A DNA stretch of 37,093 nucleotides from Candidatus Methylomirabilota bacterium. GTDB lineage: Bacteria; Methylomirabilota; Methylomirabilia; Rokubacteriales; CSP1-6. Positions 2,844 through 16,128 of this stretch are shown in pieces. The stretch spans positions 1 through 37,093 of the forward strand of contig JBKPAK010000080.1 of the NCBI GenBank assembly GCA_046726415.1. Direction: 5' to 3'. Position 1 is the stretch's first letter, and every line of letters begins with the position of its first letter. The translations under genes were made by a program, and so were the position numbers. The notes under the pieces were generated by a model, which was not told the origin of the DNA, did not search any database, and saw only the letters and a program-made list of their open reading frames with translations.

Positions 2844-3473
2844 GTGGACGTAGCGTTGGAGAAGAGGCAGGTCCAGCGCGCCTACGAGCTGTACGCGCCT
2901 GTGTACGACCTCCTCTTCGACTGGATCTTTGCGCCCGGGCGCGCCGCCGCCATCAAGCACCTCGGCATCCAGTCGAGGGACTCGGTCCTCGAGGTCGGAA
3001 TCGGAACCGGGCTCAACCTACCGCTCTATCCCGCGGCCTGTCATCTCACGGGCATCGACCTCTCGCAGGAGATGCTCGACAAGGCTGTGGAGCGCGTACA
3101 GACGCTCGCCATGCCCAACATCCGCCTCAAAGTCATGGATGCCACATCTATGGACTTCGGCGACGACGAATTCGACAAGGCCCTGGCCACTTATACCATC
3201 TCGGCGGTGCCCGATCCGGTAGCCGCGCTGCGCGAGATGAAGCGCGCGGTGAAGCCCAACGGCGTCATCGTCATTCTCAACCACTTCCGCAGCCAGAATC
3301 CCGTGGTGGGCTGGGCGGAGGATCGGGTCGCCCCGCTCTGCACGTGGCTCGGATGGAAGTCCAACTTAGCCCTGAAGCCACTCCTGGAGCAGGTCGGCCT
3401 GGTGCCCGAGATCGTCGTGAAGGTGAACATGTTCGACGGCTGGCGCCTGGTCAAGTGCACTAATCGGAAGTAG
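2844..3473 (+). CDS. Class I SAM-dependent methyltransferase, PmtA-like phospholipid N-methyltransferase
   Basis: AYELYAPVYD, VLEVGIGTG, GIDLS, VPDP and ILNHF motifs; SD GGAGG at 2832-2836. Confidence 0.85.
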   Translation: MDVALEKRQVQRAYELYAPVYDLLFDWIFAPGRAAAIKHLGIQSRDSVLEVGIGTGLNLPLYPAACHLTGIDLSQEMLDKAVERVQTLAMPNIRLKVMDATSMDFGDDEFDKALATYTISAVPDPVAALREMKRAVKPNGVIVILNHFRSQNPVVGWAEDRVAPLCTWLGWKSNLALKPLLEQVGLVPEIVVKVNMFDGWRLVKCTNRK

Positions 3474-3561
3474 GTTCGTCAGCGCCCGCCTCGCCGCCGG
3501 CCTCGTTCTCCTCTTCGTCGCCGTCGTCCTCGCCGGCCCCGTCCTGGCGGCGGCCGCACGC

Positions 3562-4458
3562 ATGGCCGTGGCCACCGCGTTCCTGGTGGAGTTCCTCTCC
3601 GACGGACGCTATCCCCTGCTGTCCCGCCTGACCGAGGCTCCCACGCGGCGCCGCATCGCCGTGCGGGGCACCGATCTCGAGCTCCTCACGGGCACACGCG
3701 CGCGCGCGTCGCTCGTACTCGTGCACGGATTCGCTCCGGACGGCAATCAAGACCGGCGTCTTCAGGCGGCCGCTCGTCTCCTGGCCCGGGCGGGATTCGC
3801 CGTGATCGTGCCCACCATCCCCGGACTGACGCGAGGTCGGCTTCGCCCTGCCGACGCCGAGTCCGTCGTGACAGCCCTCGCCCTCCGTCCGGGACCGACC
3901 ACGCTGGTGGCCGTAAGCGTGGGAGCCGGACCCGCGCTGCTCGCCGCCACCGACCCGCGAGTCCGCGATCGCGTCGGCACGTGTGTGGTCCTGGGGGGGT
4001 ATGCCTCGGCGCGGGAACTGGTGCGCTATTTCCTCACCGGCGAGTATGCGTTCGGCGAGCTTCGCGGACATACGCGGCACGATCCCGACCTGGTCCGCGC
4101 GTTCATCGCCGCCAACGCCGATCTGGTCGAGGCGTCCCTGCGTCAGGCCCTCGAGACCGGCGACCGCACGGCCGTCGAGACCGCGGTGAACGCGCTCGCG
4201 CCGCTGCTGGACATCGTCTCACCGGAGAACGTGGTCGCCCGAATTCCCGGGCGCCTCGTCCTCCTCCACGGGCGCGGCGACGCGGCCGTACCGTACACGG
4301 AGACGCTCCGGCTGGCCGCGGCGCGTCCGCACGACACGACGGTGGTGCTGGTGGGCGTCATCGGCCACGTCGCGGGCGAGGGCGGCCGAACCCTCCAGGC
4401 GATACGCGACCTCGCGGTGCTGTGGGGTGTGACCTACGCGGTGATCGCGGATCGCTGA
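3562..4458 (+). CDS. Alpha/beta hydrolase fold protein
   Basis: LVLVHG, AVSVGAG nucleophile elbow, LLHGRGD..VP and a C-terminal His; the true start may lie upstream. Confidence 0.7.
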   Translation: MAVATAFLVEFLSDGRYPLLSRLTEAPTRRRIAVRGTDLELLTGTRARASLVLVHGFAPDGNQDRRLQAAARLLARAGFAVIVPTIPGLTRGRLRPADAESVVTALALRPGPTTLVAVSVGAGPALLAATDPRVRDRVGTCVVLGGYASARELVRYFLTGEYAFGELRGHTRHDPDLVRAFIAANADLVEASLRQALETGDRTAVETAVNALAPLLDIVSPENVVARIPGRLVLLHGRGDAAVPYTETLRLAAARPHDTTVVLVGVIGHVAGEGGRTLQAIRDLAVLWGVTYAVIADR

Positions 4459-4480
4459 GAACGCCGTCTCGCCGCGGCGA

Positions 4481-5923
4481 TCAGCCGGAGGCAGCGCGCC
4501 CATCACTTCCGGGCCGCTGCACGCCCCACCCGGACAGCTTGGCCAGCACCGTGTTGCGGTGCACGCCTAAGGTGCGGGCCGCGCGGCTCACGTTCCACCC
4601 CACCTGCTCAAGCACGCGCAGCACGTACTGCCGCTCGAACTGGTCGCGCGCCGCCCCGAGCGGGAGCCCGGTGTCCTCGGCCAGCCGCGCGCCGGTCTCC
4701 GGCATGGCCACGTCGAGGGGAAAGTCCTGGAGCTGCAGAACCGGCTTGCGGGCCAGGACCACGGCGCGGTGAATGACATTTTCCAGCTCGCGAACGTTGC
4801 CGGGCCAGTCGTAGCGAATCAGCGTGTCGAGGGCGCCCGCGGAGATACCCCGCACATCGCGGTGACATTCGCGGCTGATTTTCGCGATGAAGTGCTCGAC
4901 CAGGAGCACAATGTCCTCTCGCCGCTCGCGGAGCGGCGGCACGTGGATGGGAATCACGTTGAGCCGGTAGTACAGATCCTCGCGAAAGGTGCGGAGCCGC
5001 ACGGCCTGACGCAGGTTGACGTTGGTCGCGGCCAGCAGCCGCACGTCGACCGGCGTCGGCCGCACGCCGCCCACGCGCTCGATCTCGCGCTCCTGGAGCG
5101 CGCGCAGCAGCTTGGCCTGGAGGTCGAGCCGGAGGGAGCCGATTTCGTCGAGGAAGACCGTTCCCCCTTGGGCCAGCTCGAACTTGCCGAGCTTGCGGGC
5201 CACCGCGCCGGTGAAGGCGCCTTTCTCATGGCCGAACAGCTCCGATTCGATCAGGGTGTCGGGAATGGCCGCGACGTTGACGGCCACGAAGGGCTGGGTG
5301 CGGCGTGGGCTCTGGTGATGGATGGCCCGCGCCACCAGTTCCTTGCCCGTCCCGCTCTCCCCGGTGATGAGCACGGTGGTGAGCGTCTCCGCGAGCTGGG
5401 CCACCAGCTGGTAGATGCGGATCATCTCGCGATGACGTCCGATCATGGGCCGGGACGCGCTGCCCTCGTGCCCGGGCAGGGTCAGCTCCGAGCGCAAGCA
5501 GAGCACCTCGCGCTCGAGAGCTCGCTTCTCGAGGGCCCGGCGCACCAGCAGGACGATGTCGTCGACGTCGAAGGGCTTGGTGAGGTAGTCATACGCGCCG
5601 CGCCTGAGCGCTTCCACCGCCGTGCGAACCTCGTGAACCGCGGTGACCAGCACCACCACGATGGTGTCGTCGAGGGCCTTGATGCGCTGGAGCACATCGA
5701 GCCCGGCCTCGCCCGGCATGCGCTGATCCAGGAGCACGAGGTCGACCTCATGGCCGCGGAGCCGCTCGAACGCCTCGGCACCGTCCTCGGCCTCGAGAAT
5801 GTGACAGGTTCCCTCGAGAATCGCGCGCACCGACGCGCGCACACTGGGCTCGTCGTCGACCACCAGCACGGTGCCGTGGGGGGTCAGGGCGCGCGCTTCC
5901 TCGATGACGGAGGGCTTGGTCAT
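4481..5923 (-). CDS. sigma54-dependent NtrC-family response regulator (REC-AAA+-HTH)
   Basis: Receiver VLVVDDE, GESGTGKE, GAFTGA, WPGNVREL and a Fis-type HTH. Confidence 0.95.
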   Translation of the reverse strand: MTKPSVIEEARALTPHGTVLVVDDEPSVRASVRAILEGTCHILEAEDGAEAFERLRGHEVDLVLLDQRMPGEAGLDVLQRIKALDDTIVVVLVTAVHEVRTAVEALRRGAYDYLTKPFDVDDIVLLVRRALEKRALEREVLCLRSELTLPGHEGSASRPMIGRHREMIRIYQLVAQLAETLTTVLITGESGTGKELVARAIHHQSPRRTQPFVAVNVAAIPDTLIESELFGHEKGAFTGAVARKLGKFELAQGGTVFLDEIGSLRLDLQAKLLRALQEREIERVGGVRPTPVDVRLLAATNVNLRQAVRLRTFREDLYYRLNVIPIHVPPLRERREDIVLLVEHFIAKISRECHRDVRGISAGALDTLIRYDWPGNVRELENVIHRAVVLARKPVLQLQDFPLDVAMPETGARLAEDTGLPLGAARDQFERQYVLRVLEQVGWNVSRAARTLGVHRNTVLAKLSGWGVQRPGSDGRAASG

Positions 5924-6028
5924 GGCGTGGCAGCGTCCTCGATGAGGGGGTGATCGGTCAAGATGAATTCAATTTGATACGCTGAGGCCGACCGCCGCAC
6001 GCGCGGCCATGCCCGCTGGCCAGGGATT

Positions 6029-7420
6029 CTAGCGTGGCCCGCGCGCCTCCGCCAGAGGGAACAGAGAGAGCTGGAGAATGCGGCGCGTGAGGGCGGTGAC
6101 CGGAGCCACGGATCCGCGCCGAACGCCGCCCACCCACGCGATCTCGGGGCCAGCTTGGACGATGGGCACTCGTTGCCGTTCCCAGCGGGGCCGTCCGGCC
6201 TCGAGCAGGAGCCTCTTGACTCGACGCTCGCCCGAAGTCCCGAAGGGGGTGAGGCGATCGCCGGGACGCCGGGCGCGGACGATGAGCGGGCCCGGGAGGG
6301 CCTCGACGTCGAACGCGACGCGCCACGGATCACGTGGAATCTCATACCCCGAGCGCGGAAGGAGCGCGCTTTCCAGCATGAGATCGGCCTCCGGCAAGGC
6401 CATGCAACCCGGCACGGGAATGTCGCGGGCGGTGAGCGACGCGGGCGGGTGGCTCGCCAGACGGAGACGACCGACGCTGACGTCGACCGTTACGCGACCG
6501 AGGGCAAAGGCACGCCGCGGTGGCGGGTGAGCCAGCGCGCGCCGCAGGCCGCGATGAGCCCATGCGCGGAGTGGAGCACGGCTCCCCAGGATTGCGGCCG
6601 CTTGGCGTAGAACCTCAGCGGCCACCTCCCCAGGTAGCGCCTGCAGCTCTCCGAGGGGGAGAATCAATTCGCCGGGAGCCGCAGTGGCCAGCCGCTCCAG
6701 CTCTTGCGCCGCCACGCGCTCCACCGCGTCGACGGTCGTGCCGGCCAGCGTCGCCACCCGAACAAGCGCCGGGACGATCTCGGCGTTGTAGAACTCGGCC
6801 AGCAGGGGGAGGAGCTCGTGCCGGATCCGATTGCGCACGAAGCGTCGGTCCTCGTTCCACGGGTCTTCGAGCCACTCGACGCCCATCCCGCTCAGCAGTG
6901 CGCGGAGGGCAGTGCGGCGTTCGGCGAGGAGCGGTCGGATGATGGGACCGCGCCGGGCGGGGATCCCGGCCAGGCCGCGCACACCCGTTCCCTCGAGGAT
7001 CCGCATGAGCACCGTCTCGGCCTGATCGTCGCTCGTGTGACCGAGCGCGATGCGCTGAGCGCCAATGCGGTCCGCATAGTCCTCGAGAGCACGGTACCGG
7101 GCCGCACGGGCGGCGGCCTCGCGCGAGCCTCCGGCCACAACGCTGACCGTGGCAGTCTCGGCGGGGACATCGAGTCGCGCGGCCAATCGGCAGACGAACT
7201 CTCCGTCGCGGCCAGAGTCGGATCGGAGCTGATGATCAACGTACAGCGCATGCAGGGTGAGCCGCCAGGCTGGGGCGAGACGGTGGAGCAGGTAGAGGAG
7301 GGCCACGGAGTCAGACCCCCCGGAGACGGCCGCCAGGACAGTTTCGCCACCCCGGAGCATCGCGTGGCGGCGAATGGTGCTCTCAACGGAGACGAGGATG
7401 TCGTCCGCCGTCGTGTTCAA
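6029..7420 (-). CDS. tilS: tRNA(Ile)-lysidine synthetase
   Basis: PP-loop SGGSDS, GHTSDDQAET, IRPLL, RNRIRH and C-terminal TilS domains; TTG start uncertain. Confidence 0.93.
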   Translation of the reverse strand: MNTTADDILVSVESTIRRHAMLRGGETVLAAVSGGSDSVALLYLLHRLAPAWRLTLHALYVDHQLRSDSGRDGEFVCRLAARLDVPAETATVSVVAGGSREAAARAARYRALEDYADRIGAQRIALGHTSDDQAETVLMRILEGTGVRGLAGIPARRGPIIRPLLAERRTALRALLSGMGVEWLEDPWNEDRRFVRNRIRHELLPLLAEFYNAEIVPALVRVATLAGTTVDAVERVAAQELERLATAAPGELILPLGELQALPGEVAAEVLRQAAAILGSRAPLRAWAHRGLRRALAHPPPRRAFALGRVTVDVSVGRLRLASHPPASLTARDIPVPGCMALPEADLMLESALLPRSGYEIPRDPWRVAFDVEALPGPLIVRARRPGDRLTPFGTSGERRVKRLLLEAGRPRWERQRVPIVQAGPEIAWVGGVRRGSVAPVTALTRRILQLSLFPLAEARGPR

Positions 7421-7543
7421 TTAAACGGGGGACGCCCCTCGTTGTCGCGCCAATTCGTGGAGGCCGACATCGCGTCGCATGCCCTCGCAACCTCGCAGCG
7501 CGCCCAGGCAAAGCCGCGCAGCTCCCGGATCTCCGACCTGGTC

Positions 7544-8212
7544 CTAGCCGCCTTGTAGGCCCACCCACACCTCGCCGTCACCGAAGTGCTCCTTCTTCCA
7601 AACTGGCACCGTCGTCTTGAGCGTGTCGATGGCGTACTGGCACGCTGCGAACGCCTCACCGCGGTGCGCGGCCGAGACCGCGATCAGGACGCTCGATTCT
7701 CCGATGTCCAGCCGTCCGAGCCGGTGGAACATCGCGACGCGCTTCACACCAGGCCATCGCGCCCGGATGGCGCCACCGATCTCGCGCATTTTGGCCTCGG
7801 CCATGGGGACATGCGCCTCGTACTCCAGGAACTTCACGCCGCGCCCCCCCGTCTCGTTGCGGACCACGCCGGAAAAGATGACAATGCCGCCCGCCCCGGG
7901 ATGGTCGACGGCAGCCGCGATGGCGTCGGGCACCAGCGGCTGCCTCACCACGCGATACGTGTCGTCACTCCCTCCGCTCACCGGGGGGAAGAGGCAGAGT
8001 TCATCTCCCGAGGCGAGACGGTGGTCGGAAGCGACATAGTCATGCCCGACCGCGAAAAGGGTGAAGGGGCGGTATTGTGACAGCTCGGGATGGCGGCTGA
8101 CGACTACCTCCCACGCCGCCTCGACCGTTCCGCCCTCGGGGAGCTCAACTTCGATCCGCTCGCGCCCGGCGGCCTCACGATAGCGGGCGAAGAGCCGGAC
8201 GTCGACGCGCAC
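7544..8212 (-). CDS. Molybdopterin synthase MoaD-MoaE fusion (MoaX-like)
   Basis: N-terminal ubiquitin-like domain ending PPVSGG, followed by MoaE motifs LEYEAH, HRLG and VPVWKKE. Confidence 0.92.
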   Translation of the reverse strand: MRVDVRLFARYREAAGRERIEVELPEGGTVEAAWEVVVSRHPELSQYRPFTLFAVGHDYVASDHRLASGDELCLFPPVSGGSDDTYRVVRQPLVPDAIAAAVDHPGAGGIVIFSGVVRNETGGRGVKFLEYEAHVPMAEAKMREIGGAIRARWPGVKRVAMFHRLGRLDIGESSVLIAVSAAHRGEAFAACQYAIDTLKTTVPVWKKEHFGDGEVWVGLQGG

Positions 8213-8221
8213 GGCGGCGCG

Positions 8222-8548
8222 CTAGAAGCGGTGGGACTGGCCGCAGCCGCAGCTCGATTTCACGTTCGGGTTCTTGACCGCGAAGCCGGCGCCCAGCATG
8301 TTGTTGTCGACGTAGTCGATCTCGCTCCCTGAGAGATAGGGTGCGCTGAACTGGTCCACGTACACCTTGACTCCGCTCTGCTCAACGACACTATCGCCGG
8401 CAGTCTCGGTGTCCTCCCAACCCAACTCATACGACATGCCAGAGCACCCGCCCCCAACCACCCGGATACGCAGGCCCCACTCTGGCTTTCCTTCCTCCAG
8501 CCGAAGGTCCGAAACCTTCTTGGCGGCCATCTCGGTCAGCGTGATCAT
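8222..8548 (-). CDS. A-type Fe-S cluster carrier (IscA/ErpA/HesB family)
   Basis: GGGCSG and SCGCGQS motifs. Confidence 0.93.
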   Translation of the reverse strand: MITLTEMAAKKVSDLRLEEGKPEWGLRIRVVGGGCSGMSYELGWEDTETAGDSVVEQSGVKVYVDQFSAPYLSGSEIDYVDNNMLGAGFAVKNPNVKSSCGCGQSHRF

Positions 8549-8587
8549 CGCGCCTCTCCCTCCAATGCCGGAATCACAGAAAGCGTA

Positions 8588-9313
8588 TCACAGGATGCCT
8601 CCCGCCGGCATCAGCGTGAGGTCTTCCAGTGACGCGTGCCGAGGCAAGGCCGCCATGAGCACAACAGCCCGGGCCACATCCTCCGGTTTGAGCATCCGCC
8701 CGCGATCGGGTGCATCTGGGATGCTGTCCCAGAGGGGCGTGTCCACCGCGCCCGGGGCCAGCACCCCCACGCGAACGCCCTCTGCCCGCATCTCCTCCGC
8801 CAACACTCGGCTGAACGCCACCAGCCCCGCCTTGGTCGCGGCGTAGACGGCCGCTCCGGCAATCGGGCGACGGGCGGCGATCGACGCCAGGTTGACGATA
8901 GTGCCTCCCCGCTGCCGGACCATCACCGGCAGTACGGCGCGGCAGCACAGCATGGCTCCCCGCAGGTTCACCGCGAGCATGGGGTCCCAATCAGCCGGTT
9001 TGGTTCCGATCAGCGGCCCAAACGACGCGACTCCGGCCGCGGTCACCAAGAGATCGACGCGGCCCAGCGCGGCCGACGCCTGTTCCACGAGGGCATCGAC
9101 CGCCTCCGCGGAGGCCACATCGGTGGGAATCGCCAGCGCGCGGCCACCGCGCTCCCGAACTTCGGTCGCCACCGCGGTCAGTTCGAGGCGCGTGCGAGCG
9201 GCCAGGGCGACGGCCGCTCCCTCCGCGGCGAGGGCGAGAGCCACCGCGCGGCCGATCCCCCGTCCGGCACCGGTCACGATCGCGGCCTGCCCCTCGAGCT
9301 CCCGCGGCGTCAT
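8588..9313 (-). CDS. SDR-family NAD(P)-dependent oxidoreductase (candidate sepiapterin-reductase-type)
   Basis: TGAGRGIG and YAATK motifs; ATG 9313 overlaps the folE stop (ATGA). Confidence 0.88.
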
Positions 9314-9873
9314 ATCTGAAGCCCCCGGCTGGATTTGATCAGCTCCATGAATTCGGCCCGGGTCTCCGGTCGGTCGCGGAACACCCCGAGCATGGCCGAG
9401 GTCACGGCCTTGGAATTCTGCTTCTCCACCCCCCGCATGAGCATGCACAAGTGCACGGCCTCCATGACCACGGCCACCCCGCGCGGCTGCAGCACCTCGT
9501 TGAGGGTGGCCGCGATCTGCGTGGTGAGCCGTTCCTGGACTTGCAAGCGCCGGCTGAACATCTCCACGAGGCGTGGAATCTTCGACAGTCCCACGATCCT
9601 CTGCTCGGGCAGATACGCCACGTGGGCTTTGCCAAAGAAGGGCAAGAGATGATGCTCACACAACGAGAAGAAGTCGACGTCCTTGACCACCACCATCTCG
9701 TCGTACTGCTCGACGAACAGGGCGCCGTTCAGGATCTCCTCGACCTTCTGCGAATAGCCCGAGGTGAGATAGCGCAGCGCCTTCTCCACCCGGTCGGGGG
9801 TTCGCTCCAGGCCCTCTCGCCGGATGTCCTCGCCCAGTTGGCCCAAGAGCTCCTGGATCAGATCCGCGATCAT
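9310..9873 (-). CDS. folE: GTP cyclohydrolase I
   Basis: [33 protein letters not shown] and HLCMLMRG motifs. Confidence 0.97.
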
Positions 9874-10280
9874 CGCGTCTCGCCTCGATACTCGAACTGG
9901 TTCTTGGCCGTCTCGTGAACGGTCACGCCGGTGAGTGCGGGGAGCGCCGGCGCCAGCATCGCCCAGAACGCGCGGGCCAGGCTCTCCCCGGTCGTGATGA
10001 TCCCGGCCAGCGACGCCACGTGCTCAAGGGGCTGGTGGTCGACCGCGTCGAGAAGGATCCGTTGCACGGCGCGATCGACAGGGCCGAGGTCGAGGGCCAT
10101 GCCTGTCACCGGGTCGGGCGTCCCAGCCAGCGTCACCTCGACGTAGTAATTGTGACCATGCGGCCGAGCGCAGGGGCCGTAGAGCGCGGCGTTCTCCTCT
10201 GCGCTCAGGGCGGGGTGGTCCAGGCGGTGCGCAGCGCTGAAGTGATAGATGCGGGTGAGCTCCACCATCTCACCGCTCAT
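9870..10280 (-). CDS. 6-pyruvoyl-tetrahydropterin synthase family protein (Cys-containing)
   Basis: FSAAHRL...[24 protein letters not shown] and ET motifs; ATG 10280. Confidence 0.9.
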
Positions 10281-10690
10281 CGCCGTCCTCCGCGATAGTC
10301 CACATACAGGGTGGGATCCTCCCACACGCGGACCTGCCAGAGGCGGTCGGGGTCGAGCTTGGGAGCCAGCAGTTCCCAGATGGCAATGGCGATGTTCTCG
10401 GTGGTGGGAACGCGATCCCGGAAGAGCGGATCGACGTTGAGATCAGCGTGATCGAAGCGCTCGACCACTATCTCGCTCACGATGCGCTTCAGCTCAGCCA
10501 GATCCATCACCATGCCCGTCCGCGCGTCGATCGGCCCGCGCACGGTGACATCCAGCGTGTAGTTGTGCCCATGCGGCACGGTGAGGGTGCCGAACACCCG
10601 GCGGTTCTCGGCTTCACTCCAGGCGGAAACCCAGTAACGGTGTCCGGCCGAGAAGGTGAAGCGTCGCGTGGTCGAGGCCAGGTCGCTCAT
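10277..10690 (-). CDS. 6-pyruvoyl-tetrahydropterin synthase family protein (lacks the catalytic Cys)
   Basis: FSAGHRYW...SEAENRRVFGTLTVPHGHNY and PTTENIA motifs; ATG 10690. Confidence 0.88.
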   Translation of the reverse strand: MSDLASTTRRFTFSAGHRYWVSAWSEAENRRVFGTLTVPHGHNYTLDVTVRGPIDARTGMVMDLAELKRIVSEIVVERFDHADLNVDPLFRDRVPTTENIAIAIWELLAPKLDPDRLWQVRVWEDPTLYVDYRGGRR

Positions 10691-11760
10691 CGGCCGCAGG
10701 CTTCCAGGAACCGGCGGGCGACCGGCACGAGGTCGAGCGCCTGCACGCGACGCCGGCCCGCCTCGCCGATATCCTTCCGAAGCCCTTCGTTCACGAGCAG
10801 CGTTTCGATGGCCTGGGCCAGTTCCGTCGGCCGACGGGGACTGACGAGGAGTCCCGTGACACCGTCGGTGACGACCTCCGGCACCGCGGCGGCCCGACAC
10901 GCTACGATGGGCAGACCGGCCGCCATCGCTTCGGTGAAGGCGATCCCGAATCCCTCCTGGATGCTGGGGAGACAGAAGCACTGGGCATTCACGTATTCGG
11001 CGGCCAATGTCTGACGACTCACGTCGCCCAGGAGCGCGACGGTCGACTCCAGACCCAGTCGAGCCCGCTGGCCACGCACCGCGGCCATTTCCGGCCCGTT
11101 TCCTACGATGCGCACCTCGACACGAGGGATTCGGGTCCGGAGGAGCGCCGCCGCGTCGAGCAGGTCGCCGAGCCGCTTGCGCGGGTACATCCGCGCCACG
11201 GCAAGCACGGTGGGACGGTCCGCGGGACGACGGCATCCCGCCTCGGCGAAGCGACGACGCCACTCCCCCAGATCGATCGGCTCGGGCACCACAGCCAGGC
11301 GGTCGCGGGGGATCCCGTAGAGCGCGCGCACGATGTCGGCGCAGTACTGACTCGTCACGATCACGCGGTCGGCCAGGTGGAGATTGCGGCGCTCCCAGCG
11401 AGCCTGGACGCTGAGCAGCAGGCGTACCCCGCCGCGTTCGTTGCGCAGCTCGTCGGCGATGACCCCCTTGGGTGTCGCCACGAACGCGGAGCGCCGTCGC
11501 CGGCGCCGGTTCCCGCGCGCCCACAAGAATCCGTCGAGGTCCACCCCGACCACGAGATCGCCGCGGGGCGGCGCCATGACCATCGCCGCGTTGTAGAGCC
11601 AGCGGTCGAAGGTGTGGAAGCGGGTGCGCACACGCAGCGGGCGAACCGCGACATTGTGGCCAAGGGCGGTCAGCCCCCGGGCCAATCCGTCGACCGCGAC
11701 GAATGTTCCGCTACCCTCGATCGCGCTCGGCGGCGTCGAGCTGAGCACATCGACGTTCAC
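10687..11760 (-). CDS. Glycosyltransferase family 4 (GT-B)
   Basis: ARMYPRK, PSIQEGFGIAFTEAMAAGLP (EX7E) and PEVV..GVTGLL motifs; GTG 11760. Confidence 0.9.
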   Translation of the reverse strand: MNVDVLSSTPPSAIEGSGTFVAVDGLARGLTALGHNVAVRPLRVRTRFHTFDRWLYNAAMVMAPPRGDLVVGVDLDGFLWARGNRRRRRRSAFVATPKGVIADELRNERGGVRLLLSVQARWERRNLHLADRVIVTSQYCADIVRALYGIPRDRLAVVPEPIDLGEWRRRFAEAGCRRPADRPTVLAVARMYPRKRLGDLLDAAALLRTRIPRVEVRIVGNGPEMAAVRGQRARLGLESTVALLGDVSRQTLAAEYVNAQCFCLPSIQEGFGIAFTEAMAAGLPIVACRAAAVPEVVTDGVTGLLVSPRRPTELAQAIETLLVNEGLRKDIGEAGRRRVQALDLVPVARRFLEACGR

Positions 11761-11767
11761 GCGGCAG

Positions 11768-12550
11768 TTACCGTCCCTGGAAGCGGGGCCGACGCTTTTC
11801 CAGGAAGGCCCGCGTGCCTTCCTTGTAATCCTGGCTCTCGTACGTTTCGAGCGAGAGCGCGCCAAGGCGCTGACGCCGCGTCTCGTCCAGCCCCTCGACG
11901 TACAGCTGGACCGTGGCCTTGGCGCCTCGCACGGACAGGGGAGCGTTATCGGCGACCTGCTCGAGGTACTCGTAGGTGGCCGACTCTAACTCGTCGGCCG
12001 GCAACAGGCGCTGGATGAAGCCGATGGCCAAGGCCTCGTGGTCGCCCACGGTGCGCGCCGAGAACAGGATGTCCTTCGCGTAGGCAGGGCCGACCAACTC
12101 CACGAGCTGGCCCACGGCATCGGCACCGTAAATAATGCTGAGCCGTGCCGCCGGGATGCCGAACTGCGCTCCCTCGGCGGCGAAGCGCAGATCGCACGCC
12201 ATGGCCACGGCCATGGCGCCGCCCATGCAGTAGCCGTGAATCATGGCCACCGTGGGCTTTGGACACCCGCGGATGGCGGCGTAGGCCGCGTCGGTCTGGG
12301 CTCCGTAGCGCAGGGCTGTCTCCGTGTCCTTGCGGTACTCCTGGAACTCGGAGATGTCGGCGCCCGAGGCGAAGGCCTGGCGCCCGGCCCCCCGGTAGAC
12401 GACACCGCGCACGGTGTCGTCATCCCTCAAGGCACGACTGATCCGCGCAAGCTCCCCCCACATCGCGAAGCTGATGGCGTTGCGCATCCGGGGGCGGTTG
12501 ATGACGACGGTAGCGATGGCGCCCGTGCGCTCCACGAGGACATCACTCAT
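11768..12550 (-). CDS. Enoyl-CoA hydratase/isomerase family protein
   Basis: NRP..RNA, FASGADISEF, GYCMGG, ACDLR and EGTRAFLEKR motifs. Confidence 0.92.
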   Translation of the reverse strand: MSDVLVERTGAIATVVINRPRMRNAISFAMWGELARISRALRDDDTVRGVVYRGAGRQAFASGADISEFQEYRKDTETALRYGAQTDAAYAAIRGCPKPTVAMIHGYCMGGAMAVAMACDLRFAAEGAQFGIPAARLSIIYGADAVGQLVELVGPAYAKDILFSARTVGDHEALAIGFIQRLLPADELESATYEYLEQVADNAPLSVRGAKATVQLYVEGLDETRRQRLGALSLETYESQDYKEGTRAFLEKRRPRFQGR

Positions 12551-12656
12551 TGCGCCACCTCGACGATCGGCCGCTCCGCACGGTCGTGACACTGCTGACG
12601 AAGACACGGTTCAGCCGTGGAGTACATGGGCTGAAAGTGTAGCACCGTCAGGAGGA

Positions 12657-12731
12657 TGGTGGCGGTGGGAGGAATTGAACCTCCGACACGGGGCTTATGA
12701 GACCCCTGCTCTGCCGCTGAGCTACACCGCC
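12657..12731 (-). tRNA. tRNA-Met (CAU), probably elongator
   Basis: Reverse complement GGCGGTGTAGCTCAGCGGCAGAGCAGGGGTCTCATAAGCCCCGTGTCGGAGGTTCAATTCCTCCCACCGCCACCA: full cloverleaf, CAT anticodon, G1-C72 pair (not initiator), encoded CCA. Confidence 0.93.
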
Positions 12732-13282
12732 GTGAGTTCGGTAGGCCGCGCAGTTGCAGTACAGGATTTTACGACAGCAGACGCGAGGGTGCCCGAGAAC
12801 GTGCCATCGGGCCTCCGCTTCGCTTCGCGCAGGTCGGCACCCCTGAGCACCGCGTACCGCGGGGTAGACGCCCTCGGTCTTGTTCGGCCTTCCACCCTCG
12901 GTCCACGCGAAGCGAGATGCGGCGCCCAGCAGGTCATCCCTGGACTGTTTCCACGCCGAGAAGGCCAGCGGCCAAGTGGAGGCCGTCGATCCTGCCCGCT
13001 CCAAGCCTCCTGGAGAAGTGTCGAGAGACCTAAAGGAGACCGGACAATGGCGACGGCACCGCACTCGACGCTCGCGTGGCCCGGCACTGGCCGGTCATCT
13101 GATCCAGTGGTCCGTTGACCACCGCGAACATCGACGGTGATTGGATCGCACTGCTAGATTTTCCTGACATCGCGTTCCCGTCTACGAGACGCTCGGCGCG
13201 GGCGCCACGGTCCAGGGTTCGAGCCCAGTTTCCGCCACCCACAACAATGAGGGCGAAAGCCTTCTCCCGCACTGATCCGCGT

Positions 13283-13603
13283 TCATCTCGAACTGGATGC
13301 TATGAACTGACTCCAGGAGCCTCTCGAGTCATCGACATGGAAGGCCATCAGGTTTCCAGTTTGGCAAGCAGGTGCTATCGAGGTATGAAAACCTGGATTG
13401 CTTGTGGCGAAAAATCCACCTTCTTGGGGAAAGACGTAGAGCCACGTCGTTGCGCCGTCGGAAACGGTATAGCAGTGAGACGCATGGACCAAGTGCCAAC
13501 CCGTCGTAACAGCGGCCGAAATATTCGCGGGGCTTTGGGCTTCGACTCCGCCGAGGGAAGCAAGGAGGGCGATCAATCCCAATACAGTAGACTTGATGAT
13601 CAT
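13283..13603 (-). CDS. Hypothetical secreted protein
   Basis: SD AAGGAG, signal peptide (VEA|Q), two Cys, beta-rich aromatic body; visibly lower GC than the flanks. Confidence 0.7.
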   Translation of the reverse strand: MIIKSTVLGLIALLASLGGVEAQSPANISAAVTTGWHLVHASHCYTVSDGATTWLYVFPQEGGFFATSNPGFHTSIAPACQTGNLMAFHVDDSRGSWSQFIASSSR

Positions 13604-13691
13604 GTCCGGCTCCTTTCAGGATGAAGGTGCCAAACAGGCTTATCGCACAAATAAGGGCCACGTCAATTGGACTTTTGGTCGAATCCCCCTT

Positions 13692-14047
13692 CAGAGCTGG
13701 CGCCGGCCGATGACCAGAATTTGGGCGGTGCCTTTGAGACTTGGGACACCTCGGATGGTCGTGGCGCCCCGCTTGAGAGCTGCGACGAGGGCGGTGATGG
13801 GCACGTCAGGATTGCCCGACAGGCCCGGCTCAGGCGGGAACGCGACAATCGCCTGAAGAACTCACCTCGTCGACATCGACTGCTCGTCAACATCGGCGGC
13901 GAGCAACTGGACCCTGGTCGAGTCGTGGGCGGGCTTTCCCGATTCGATGCGGAGGTCAACATGGAGCAGGACATCCTTCACCGAGGTGTCGCCCTTCACC
14001 CCGCCTTGCTTCGGCGCCGTCAGTTCGACGAAGCGGGAGATCTCCGC
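13692..14047 (-). pseudogene. Possible degraded gene fragment
   Basis: The minus frame reads protein-like (EISRFVELTAPKQGG...LLAADVDEQSMSTR*VLQAIVAFPPEPG...ILVIGRRQL*) with an internal TGA at 13862-13864 and no clear start. Confidence 0.3.
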
Positions 14048-14890: not shown

Positions 14891-14962
14891 TCGCCGGGAT
14901 CGCGGCCGCCGCGATTCCGTCACTCAACGCCAGGCCGGACGCCGGCTCGGAGGAGCCTTCAC

Positions 14963-15241
14963 ATGCAGTTTCGAACACGCCCCTGGTACGACGATCCCCT
15001 GCTCCGACAGGAACCGATTGAGGATGACGACGAGGAGGAGGACGAGGATCTCGAGGATGACGAGGAGGACGAGGAGGACGAGGACCTCGATGACCTGGAG
15101 GACGAGGACCTCGACGACGATGACGACGATCTCGATGAGGATTTCGATGAGGACGATGACGACCTCGATGAGGTTGACGACGAGAGCGAGGAGGACGACG
15201 ACGCCGACGAAGACGAGTCCGACGATGACGACGATGAGTAG
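14963..15241 (+). CDS. Hyper-acidic low-complexity protein (92 aa, 65 Asp/Glu)
   Basis: SD GGAGGAG, ATG, a 19-aa ordinary head, then a 73-aa D/E tract with mixed synonymous codons. Confidence 0.7.
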   Translation: MQFRTRPWYDDPLLRQEPIEDDDEEEDEDLEDDEEDEEDEDLDDLEDEDLDDDDDDLDEDFDEDDDDLDEVDDESEEDDDADEDESDDDDDE

Positions 15242-15268
15242 GTGACCCTCGACGGGAGGAGAGGATCC

Positions 15269-15994
15269 ATGGGCGAAGGATGGCTTTTCCTACTGCGGTG
15301 GTTTCATTTTCTCGCCGGCATCACGTGGATCGGGATGCTGTACTACTTCAATTTCGTGCAAACGCCGTTCTTCGCCAAGGCAGATCCCCCCGTCCGATCG
15401 GGCATGATCACGGGCGGCCTCCTGGCCAGCGCTCTCTGGTGGTTTCGCTGGGGAGCGATGATCACCCTCGCCACCGGCTGGCTCTACATCCTGCATAAAG
15501 TGTTCGCCGAGTACGGAGGCGTCGCCGGATTCCTGGGCACGGCATACGCCTGGAAGATCCTCTTCGGAGGTCTGCTCGGCACGCTGATGTGGTATAATGT
15601 TTGGTTTATCATCTGGCCGGCTCAGCAGGTGGTGATGGCCTCAGCATCCGAGGTGGCCCGGGGCGGCAAGGCCATTCCGGAGGCCGCCGCCAGGGGAGCG
15701 CGCGCCGGTGTCACGTCGCGGACCAACACCATGCTATCCATCCCCATGTTGTTCTTCATGGGCGCCGCATCCCACCTGCGGATGGCGGATCTCGCGTCAG
15801 CTAGTCAGGGGTGGGCCGCTCTCGTCCTTCTCGTCATCGTCATGGCCGCCGCGGAGATCAACGCGGTGGTGGGCCCAGCCACCCCTGACAGGGCGAGCGC
15901 GGGTAAGAAGCTTCTGGCCACCCTGAACGGAACCTTCTGGGCGGGTTTCATCCTGACCGCCATCCTCTACATCGGACTGGAAATCATCCTCTAG
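15269..15994 (+). CDS. Urate hydroxylase PuuD N-terminal-domain-like membrane protein
   Basis: LRWFHFLAGITWIG.LYYFN, NVWFIIWPAQ and SRTNT.LSIPMLFFM motifs; multiple TM helices. Confidence 0.8.
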   Translation: MGEGWLFLLRWFHFLAGITWIGMLYYFNFVQTPFFAKADPPVRSGMITGGLLASALWWFRWGAMITLATGWLYILHKVFAEYGGVAGFLGTAYAWKILFGGLLGTLMWYNVWFIIWPAQQVVMASASEVARGGKAIPEAAARGARAGVTSRTNTMLSIPMLFFMGAASHLRMADLASASQGWAALVLLVIVMAAAEINAVVGPATPDRASAGKKLLATLNGTFWAGFILTAILYIGLEIIL

Positions 15995-16128
15995 GGACTC
16001 CGAGTGCCCGAGCGCGAGATCGGCAGCTCAGCCGGCGAACCCCGCCCCGGGGCGCACCTCAACAAATCGACCCGCCCCCTGAACGACGCTGGCCCGAGGT
16101 AGGCCACGGAGCCGCCGTCATCCAGCGC

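Follow-up and report, generated by a model that had tools for sequence, protein, structure and literature searches.

A conserved glycosyltransferase-PTPS-FolE-SDR operon of Rokubacteria as a candidate route to a glycosylated biopterin-type pterin

Introduction

Most knowledge of pterin glycosides comes from cyanobacteria and green sulfur bacteria, and what the compounds do is not yet clear, according to excerpts of two publications (PMC13259868, PMC5683033). What, then, would a bacterium outside these groups make with a compact operon in which a glycosyltransferase gene is joined to genes for pterin-forming enzymes? The question is raised by a 37,093-nucleotide stretch of DNA from a Candidatus Methylomirabilota bacterium of the order Rokubacteriales (contig JBKPAK010000080.1, positions 1 to 37,093; hereafter the window). 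Its minus strand carries, at 8588-11760, five open reading frames (ORFs) in the order GT4 glycosyltransferase, two proteins of the 6-pyruvoyl-tetrahydropterin synthase (PTPS) family, GTP cyclohydrolase I (FolE) and a classical short-chain dehydrogenase/reductase (SDR). A first-pass annotation, made from the letters alone, had read these genes as a complete pathway to a glycoside of tetrahydrobiopterin (BH4) in a context without phototroph genes. From the comparative analysis reported here, a PTPS-plus-SDR pterin route appears likely, and we put the chances at about even that the operon yields a biopterin-type pterin that is probably also glycosylated.

Results

Five overlapping genes form an operon-like unit

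From the re-read sequence, it is clear that the five genes are joined as tightly as had been described. The GT4 gene (10687-11760, minus strand, as for all five; GTG start, 357 aa, GT-B fold; Pfam Glycos_transf_1 and Glyco_transf_4) is followed by PTPS1 (10277-10690, 137 aa, PF01242 at 4.5e-35), which is without the catalytic Cys, and PTPS2 (9870-10280, 136 aa, PF01242 at 1.8e-29), which has the Cys within a CxxxHGH motif. Then come FolE (9310-9873, 187 aa, GTP_cyclohydroI at 6.9e-76, TIGR00063) and the SDR (8588-9313, 241 aa, adh_short at 3.1e-58). The letters ATGA stand at all four junctions in the minus-strand reading (10690-10687, 10280-10277, 9873-9870 and 9313-9310), the start codon of each downstream gene overlapping the TGA stop of the gene before. 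The four overlaps of the first-pass annotation were thus recovered at the same coordinates and on the same strand, and its family assignments agree with Pfam.

For the comparison we used a sample of 151 genomes of the phylum, in families f1, f2, f3, f9 and others, where f1 is the family of the window and f9 is NC10; the host genome itself measures 7.6 Mb and is 98% complete. Because the order GT4-PTPS1-PTPS2-FolE-SDR is kept in all 16 loci fetched from f1, the five genes are a real operon-like unit. No sigma-70-like promoter was found in 5800-13200. Four terminator-like sites were found, against 2.1 ± 1.4 expected, and the sole one on the minus strand falls within the GT4 gene. None of the listed data sets that contain the stretch is registered as RNA. 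Transcripts were sought in two runs guessed to be RNA and in one metatranscriptome; the former gave a few 151-nt contigs, with 0-1 differences, within the SDR and GT4 genes, none of which bridged a junction, and the latter gave nothing, a result that weighs neither way.

The PTPS pair resembles a split two-module enzyme

At the His residues of FSAxH, HGH and DH, both PTPS1 and PTPS2 align with the solved structures 3i2b and 1b66, the roles of the zinc ligands and of the Asp-His residues being those of the rat PTPS structure. When aligned to human and rat PTPS, PTPS1 (FGTLTVPHGHNY) has Leu at the position of the catalytic Cys and retains the His zinc ligands and the Asp-His dyad, and the Cys of PTPS2 aligns with the catalytic Cys of rat PTPS. 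The zinc His and Asp-His positions are invariant in one of our alignments (A2); in another (A3) two f9 rows read DR. In f9, it is the second module that has Asp-Arg in place of Asp-His, and the first module keeps Asp-His, a pattern that would fit active sites built across subunits.

Chloroflexia, cyanobacteria and Fimbriimonadaceae have PTPS fusions of about 270 aa that share 50-57% identity with PTPS1. Identity of PTPS1 to the Chloroflexia fusions is 51-53% over the N-module and 40-42% over the C-module. In BLAST comparisons with six fusions, PTPS1 scored best on the N-module in four and PTPS2 best on the C-module in all six, and the gene order PTPS1-PTPS2 is the module order of the fusions. 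In a maximum-likelihood tree of 51 modules, PTPS1 falls inside a clade of all N-modules (support 92/94). Published signatures, given in a passage of PMC5041015, are CxxxxxHGH for PTPS-II, CxxxHGH for QueD (PTPS-I) and ExxHGH for PTPS-III; the second modules of f9/NC10, Acidobacteriota and Chloroflexales carry the PTPS-II motif in the form G[KR]CNNPxGHGH. Taken together, these data partly support the view that the pair corresponds to the two-module PTPS of cyanobacteria, Chloroflexi and Acidobacteria, divided between two genes.

A structural model of a PTPS1-PTPS2 complex gave a score of 0.43, against 0.22 for the best of three controls; the mark used for it is attained by 116 of the 157 solved complexes and by 2 of the 215 mismatches; within scores of 0.60 or less, just 18 solved complexes attain it, as do both of these mismatches. 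At least 94% of contacts are shared between runs, and the partners have a predicted local distance difference test (pLDDT) value of at least 86. The model lends weak support to a heteromer, and memory of solved PTPS oligomers may explain its score; the natural fusions are the better argument.

With the curated NCBIfam models, both PTPS proteins stay under the cut-offs, at 60.2 and 67.0 bits for QueD (cut-off 89.25) and likewise for 6PTHBS. Two further observations concern the PTPS family. Similarity of both proteins to rat and human PTPS, which exceeds that to QueD, was considered as support for a PTPS-II assignment and dropped, because by the relevant passage of PMC5041015 the same criterion misassigns the Synechococcus paralogs. 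In a Methylomirabilis-like genome of family f5 (G056, locus L168, 7360-8910), a single-module PTPS with the PTPS-II motif, in the form KCNNLHGHGH, is followed by FolE and by an SDR 50% identical to that of the window; no second PTPS and no glycosyltransferase match was seen in the stretch fetched.

The SDR belongs near a folE-linked cyanobacterial family

The translated SDR contains TGAGRGIG and YAATK, the classical cofactor and catalytic motifs of SDR enzymes, which are generic and do not indicate the substrate. Among the 232 NCBIfam models that it matches, the best is NF005672 (PRK07454), at 225.7 bits and under the cut-off of 234; cyanobacterial members of this family score 350-380 bits. 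NF005672 passes its cut-off in three of three cyanobacteria (Nostoc, Calothrix and Chamaesiphon), each of which has the gene immediately upstream of folE. This linkage ties the SDR type to pterin metabolism.

An SDR gene is coupled downstream of PTPS-FolE in the window and likewise in f1, in f2 and in two loci of other lineages (L068, L083) and genome G153, the SDRs of these last three being of the same type. For the SDRs that adjoin PTPS-FolE in L068 and L083, NF005672 is the best or second-best model (182.7 and 160.6 bits). The SDR is the proposed 6-pyruvoyl-tetrahydropterin or sepiapterin reductase of the operon.

GT4 accompanies the pterin genes in several lineages

The GT4 protein scores 131.8 bits with Glycos_transf_1 (2.4e-38, cut-off 26.4) and 46.8 bits with Glyco_transf_4 (4.3e-12, cut-off 28.5), and no NCBIfam model exceeds its own cut-off; matches in the ESM Atlas were confined to unnamed clusters of GT4 proteins from Rokuibacteriota, Acidobacteriota and Methylomirabilota. 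Orthologs, called in the phylum sample at full length and E ≤ 1e-50, are present in 80 of 93 f1 genomes (59-83% identity) and 6 of 7 f9 genomes (46-47%), in none of 11 f2 genomes and nowhere in the other families; among the genomes counted, G029, G058, G101 and G047 are unpublished. All four f9 loci fetched read GT4-PTPS-PTPS-FolE, without the SDR.

To go beyond the phylum, a profile (A1) built from 36 GT4 orthologs was used, and 80 loci from other genomes were retrieved with it, 20 holding full-length orthologs and 60 holding paralogs. PTPS-PTPS-FolE stands beside GT4 in 7 of the 20 ortholog loci (L065, L068, L072, L075, L078, L079 and L083), whereas PTPS and FolE are both missing from all 60 paralog loci. 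Two of the seven, L075 and L078, are from the f9 genomes already counted above and L065 has the nine-gene order of Rokubacteria, in which the operon stands among the flanking genes described below; the remainder represent three further lineages, two of Acidobacteriota and one unclassified bacterium. The last of these (L068, contig JADDQE010000118.1, 5198-12088) holds two convergent pterin operons and is the richest version of the system seen. One operon comprises a thioredoxin-reductase-like gene, an SDR, GT4, pterin-4a-carbinolamine dehydratase (PCD) and a response regulator, the PCD gene overlapping the GT4 stop, and the other comprises fused PTPS, FolE, an SDR and a RibD_C reductase.

Where GT4 is unlinked from PTPS, the two still tend to share a genome: four of five such genomes checked hold a PTPS pair or fusion elsewhere, next to folE in those four. 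Among 121 Acidobacteriota, PTPS1-like genes were found in all seven GT4 carriers (one of them, G184, unpublished) compared with 35 of 114 others, the seven possibly being close kin.

GT4 has a substitute in f2 and in three f1 genomes that lack it: a membrane protein of about 390 aa is encoded there between the enoyl-CoA hydratase gene and PTPS1 (L159-L162 in f2, L164-L166 in f1). Four copies were typed, one from f2 and three from f1, and all are GT2 glycosyltransferases, with 178-195 bits for HpnB and 141-166 bits for CruG, all under cut-off. PTPS pairs are found in 6 of the 11 f2 genomes. Two unrelated glycosyltransferases in one slot would argue that the operon needs a glycosylation step, and GT4 is the proposed pterin glycosyltransferase of the window.

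The first-pass annotation had made its reading depend on GT4 and SDR being syntenic with folE and PTPS in relatives. This is borne out for GT4 in every f1 and f9 locus fetched, but not by the GT2 swap in f2 and some f1 genomes, nor by the 13 of 20 loci of other lineages in which GT4 is unlinked, nor by the f9 and Bryobacteraceae clusters, from which the SDR is missing. Kinship of GT4 with the cyanobacterial BH4 glucosyltransferase was not borne out. The Synechococcus enzyme BGluT (5ZE7) was placed by the profile search; it was not among the single-sequence PDB matches of GT4 at E ≤ 1e-5. With profile A1 it scores 69.4 bits, over positions 178-322 (the donor domain) only, and ranks under some 35 other GT4 entries of the PDB, MshA reaching 146 bits. 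By sequence, then, GT4 is neither an ortholog of BGluT nor related to it beyond the shared donor domain, and the phylogeny that had been proposed would therefore not group GT4 with known enzymes.

Pterin and queuosine genes of the host

FolE passes TIGR00063 at the equivalog level (260.4 bits, cut-off 181.6). The operon folE is the only PF01227 match in the host genome, and FolE2 (PF02649) was found in none of three genomes of the genus; a FolB gene is present. Since the genome has no other GTP cyclohydrolase I, folE must also feed folate synthesis.

The host genome has QueC and TGT. QueE was not found in this genome with TIGR03365, TIGR04508 or TIGR04322, models that matched in 10, 9 and 9 of 14 control genomes, respectively. 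QueC lies on another contig, next to a Vut_1 (YhhQ-type) transporter gene and not beside queD or queE; the two genes are divergent, with QueC at 5577-6278 (plus strand) and Vut_1 at 4801-5481 (minus strand) of locus L060 (G000:C103:47000-58500). With neither QueE nor a separate QueD found, the QueC-Vut_1 pair suggests that a 7-deazaguanine precursor is salvaged and that preQ0 is not made de novo.

In line with what the first-pass annotation had stated of the context, photosynthetic reaction-centre genes of either type were not found in three genomes of the genus. Two PCD homologs are encoded elsewhere in the host genome. The main one (4167-4541, minus strand, of locus L061, G000:C38) is followed by a TENA/THI-4/PQQC-family ORF (3460-4443, minus strand), a neighbour that may point to an unknown pterin-dependent oxygenase.

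In some f1 relatives, folE itself is interrupted. At L164:5008-6720 (minus strand) and L165:8247-9818 (plus strand) it encodes some 280-340 extra amino acids in frame, near position 68-70 of the GTP_cyclohydroI profile, and these match intein-splicing and LAGLIDADG models at scores below or near the Pfam cut-offs. The insertion, probably also present in L042 and L055 and absent from the window folE, looks like an intein in GTP cyclohydrolase I.

A proposed pathway

The four steps would run as follows. FolE enzymes convert GTP into 7,8-dihydroneopterin triphosphate, and the operon FolE is expected to do the same. A PTPS1/PTPS2 hetero-oligomer, equivalent to a fused PTPS, would then form 6-pyruvoyl-tetrahydropterin, with the catalytic Cys from PTPS2 and with zinc ligands and Asp-His residues from both proteins. 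The SDR would reduce the side-chain carbonyls with NAD(P)H to give a tetrahydrobiopterin-like compound. In the weakest step, GT4 may use a nucleotide sugar to glycosylate a side-chain hydroxyl of the pterin.

Discussion

Weighing the biopterin reading

Several findings weigh against a biopterin-type route. The SDR falls short of the cut-off of its best family, and no sepiapterin reductase is among the best 60 of its 301 PDB matches, the top one being clavulanic acid dehydrogenase (2jah, 2.7e-44); it is also absent from the clusters of f9 and Bryobacteraceae. PTPS2 reads CARPHGH, which is the QueD-type CxxxHGH and not the PTPS-II motif, as do all its orthologs in f1-f3; both paralogs of these families, the window included, are short of two loop residues relative to PTPS-II, and PTPS2 therefore reads CxxxHGH. 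In the 51-module tree, the f1-f3 PTPS2 clade is not resolved relative to the C-modules (56/99) and joins long-branched single PTPS proteins of Chloroflexi at weak support. The operon folE is not dedicated to a biopterin-type pathway, PTPS1 and PTPS2 are the only PF01242 members of a genome that has QueC and TGT, and no known BH4-using enzyme was found there, neither an aromatic amino acid hydroxylase (PAH) nor a nitric oxide synthase (NOS). The synteny within f1 is itself weak evidence and in part plain inheritance, because the nine-gene order is kept whole, including unrelated genes such as TilS. The claim of a BH4-type pathway ending in a glycoside thus stands in part: comparative genomics ties all four enzyme types to a biopterin-type route, but the signature of PTPS2 is that of QueD and folE serves more than one pathway.

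If the pterin is made and not glycosylated, the glycosyltransferase at the head of the operon, be it GT4 or GT2, would act on a membrane lipid, an envelope component or a small thiol-type metabolite. The nearest solved relatives of GT4, namely MshA, PimA, PimB and BshA, agree with such a role, BGluT being distant, and the swapped GT2 resembles, below cut-off, the HpnB and CruG proteins of hopanoid or carotenoid lipids, so that the acceptor may not be a pterin and the slot could serve envelope chemistry. Moreover, 13 of the 20 ortholog loci (in Bryobacteraceae, Chloroflexales and others) show no linkage of GT4 to PTPS, and PTPS occurs without GT4 in f2 (6 of 11 genomes against none of 11) and in 35 of the sampled Acidobacteriota. 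Nevertheless, the adjacency of GT4 and PTPS in several phyla, at 7 of 20 ortholog loci compared with 0 of 60 for paralogs, speaks against an unrelated acceptor, as do the overlap of the GT4 and PCD genes in L068, the company of PTPS in all seven GT4 genomes of a phylum where the two are unlinked, and the ATGA overlap that couples GT4 translationally to PTPS1 in the window. Two unrelated glycosyltransferases in the same slot also fit a shared need for glycosylation. We therefore regard an unglycosylated product as rather unlikely.

The operon might instead be a housekeeping trunk, in which folE supplies folate and 7-deazaguanine synthesis, the PTPS pair is QueD, and GT4 and the SDR are inherited neighbours. 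This would account for the CxxxHGH of PTPS2, for the only PTPS genes and the only folE lying together in a genome with QueC and TGT, and for the unrelated genes that share the f1 synteny; similarity to rat PTPS is of no help here, since it fails to separate PTPS-I from PTPS-II in the cases treated in the available text of PMC5041015. Yet searches of the 98%-complete genome with three models gave no QueE, although these matched in 9-10 of 14 controls, and QueC lies beside a transporter gene rather than queD or queE. PTPS1 sits in the N-module clade of two-module PTPS, the distant orthologs of PTPS2 carry the PTPS-II motif, and Bryobacteraceae with the same pair hold in addition a separate single PTPS with the motif CExxHGH. 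The recurrent SDR-folE linkage of cyanobacteria likewise speaks against it, and we consider the housekeeping explanation quite improbable. Could the pair make yet another pterin, such as 6-hydroxymethyl-dihydropterin in a PTPS-III-like bypass of FolB, or another cofactor precursor, which the SDR and GT4 would then modify? COG0720 is promiscuous and its subfamilies are hard to separate, according to a passage of PMC5041015, and the loop deletion of f1-f3 departs from canonical PTPS-II. However, the PTPS-III motif ExxHGH is in neither protein, and the FolB gene makes a bypass unneeded; a different pterin thus seems highly improbable.

What the product might do

Returning to a biopterin-type pterin and its probable glycoside, the compound does not act as cofactor of NOS or of classical aromatic amino acid hydroxylases, because no such enzyme was found; candidate roles are redox, protective or signalling, or that of a cofactor for an unknown oxygenase. 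More broadly, one may imagine that non-phototrophic soil phyla (Rokubacteria/NC10, Acidobacteriota and Chloroflexota) make an undescribed glycosylated biopterin-type pterin, whose sugar is added by a soluble GT4 or a membrane GT2, recruited independently of the enzymes of cyanobacteria and Chlorobium, and whose function lies outside aromatic amino acid hydroxylases and NOS. This proposal is speculative and, as a whole, unlikely. Under it, the membrane GT2 of the sister lineages would hint at a membrane-associated form of the pterin. If the operon does make a glycosylated biopterin-type pterin, its conservation would place pterin glycosides in very common uncultured non-phototrophic soil bacteria, would add a new family of pterin glycosyltransferases, and would offer a natural split two-module PTPS with which to dissect a heteromeric active site. 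Since its hosts lack classical BH4-dependent enzymes, the purpose of bacterial biopterins would also become testable outside the context of light protection.

Genes and sequence around the operon

The enoyl-CoA hydratase gene (11768-12607, minus strand; NF004781 at 302.7 bits, cut-off 291) ends at 11768, 7 nt upstream of the GT4 start. Downstream of the SDR, all on the same strand, follow an ErpA/IscA-type Fe-S carrier (8222-8548) after a gap of 39 nt, a MoaD-MoaE fusion (7544-8212) after 9 nt and TilS (6029-7420) after 123 nt, each assigned by Pfam or NCBIfam. Given these close flanking genes, the operon may extend past its five genes. Across lineages, the enoyl-CoA hydratase gene is upstream in 15 of the 16 f1 loci and in the f2 loci, and not outside the order. 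ErpA, MoaDE and TilS are all downstream in 15 of the 16 f1 loci; L054, the exception, has ErpA and MoaDE but gave no TilS match up to the end of its contig.

In f1 and f2, then, the pterin cluster is followed by ErpA and the MoaD-MoaE fusion (7544-8548 in the window), and in f9 (L056:8692-11113; L057:2796-4228) it is followed by a MerR regulator, a NUBPL/Mrp-type Fe-S NTPase and a MoaB/MogA-like protein. Genes for pterin, Fe-S and molybdenum-cofactor metabolism may share a functional context here, or their meeting may be coincidental. Under the speculative proposal given above, the function of the pterin would possibly be tied to Fe-S and molybdenum-cofactor maturation, because unrelated genes of both kinds follow the cluster in two families.

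Elsewhere in the window, a 92-aa ORF at 14963-15241 (plus strand) consists almost entirely of Asp/Glu runs, with a Ser-rich ORF on the opposite strand, and the region is of low complexity (14959-15270). The G+C content dips to 59% at 13001-14000 and to 62% at 15001-16000, all other 1-kb bins lying at 66-72%.

Comparison with known systems

The closest parallel is the BH4-glucoside pathway of Synechococcus sp. PCC 7942, which consists of FolE, PTPS-II, a reductase and BGluT (5ZE7, 5ZER, 5ZES, 5ZFK). The operon follows the same succession of GTP cyclohydrolase I, PTPS, reductase and GT-B glycosyltransferase; its PTPS pair corresponds to the N- and C-modules of the fused PTPS of cyanobacteria, and the curated family nearest to its SDR is cyanobacterial and folE-linked. 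Unlike the Synechococcus pathway, it has a PTPS split into two genes, with both loops two residues shorter, a GT4 that is not a BGluT ortholog, and all genes in one operon, in a host where no reaction-centre genes were found. The PTPS-II of Synechococcus was reportedly described as 'bimodular' by Kong et al. in 2006. It is this PTPS-II, and not PTPS-I, that has the BH4 role there, as far as the excerpted text of PMC5041015 goes. Chlorobium tepidum makes an L-threo-tetrahydrobiopterin N-acetylglucosaminide with a PTPS, a sepiapterin reductase and CtPGT (UniProt Q8KE51), again a combination of PTPS, SDR and GT-B glycosyltransferase for a pterin glycoside according to parts of PMC5683033, with CtPGT likened by description only. 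The Chlorobium host, in contrast, is a phototroph, and its reductase is not among the best 60 PDB matches of the SDR. The logic of both pathways is taken from portions of three papers (PMC5683033, PMC4133829, PMC5041015).

With QueD (PTPS-I), the operon shares the protein family, the CxxxHGH of PTPS2 and a place next to folE, as in many queD clusters; it differs in that no QueE was found, in that it is not clustered with queC, and in the pairing of PTPS2 with a Cys-less paralog of the two-module clade. GT4 has the GT-B fold of MshA (3C4Q), BshA (5D00) and PimA (2GEJ), which score 146-112 bits with profile A1, but it reaches no curated cut-off and its partners are pterin genes rather than those for mycothiol, bacillithiol or phosphatidylinositol mannosides (PIM).

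A pterin in a non-phototroph is not new in itself, because BH4 production in non-phototrophic Actinobacteria has been reported (excerpt of PMC5227711) and glycosylated BH4 is cited for Sulfolobus (excerpt of PMC5683033); within a literature coverage that leaves subscription journals aside, we found no work linking Rokubacteria with such a pathway. The operon differs from the known pathways in the split, short-loop PTPS, the non-orthologous GT4 with its GT2 counterpart in sister genomes, the organisation as one operon, and hosts without phototrophy or known BH4-dependent enzymes.

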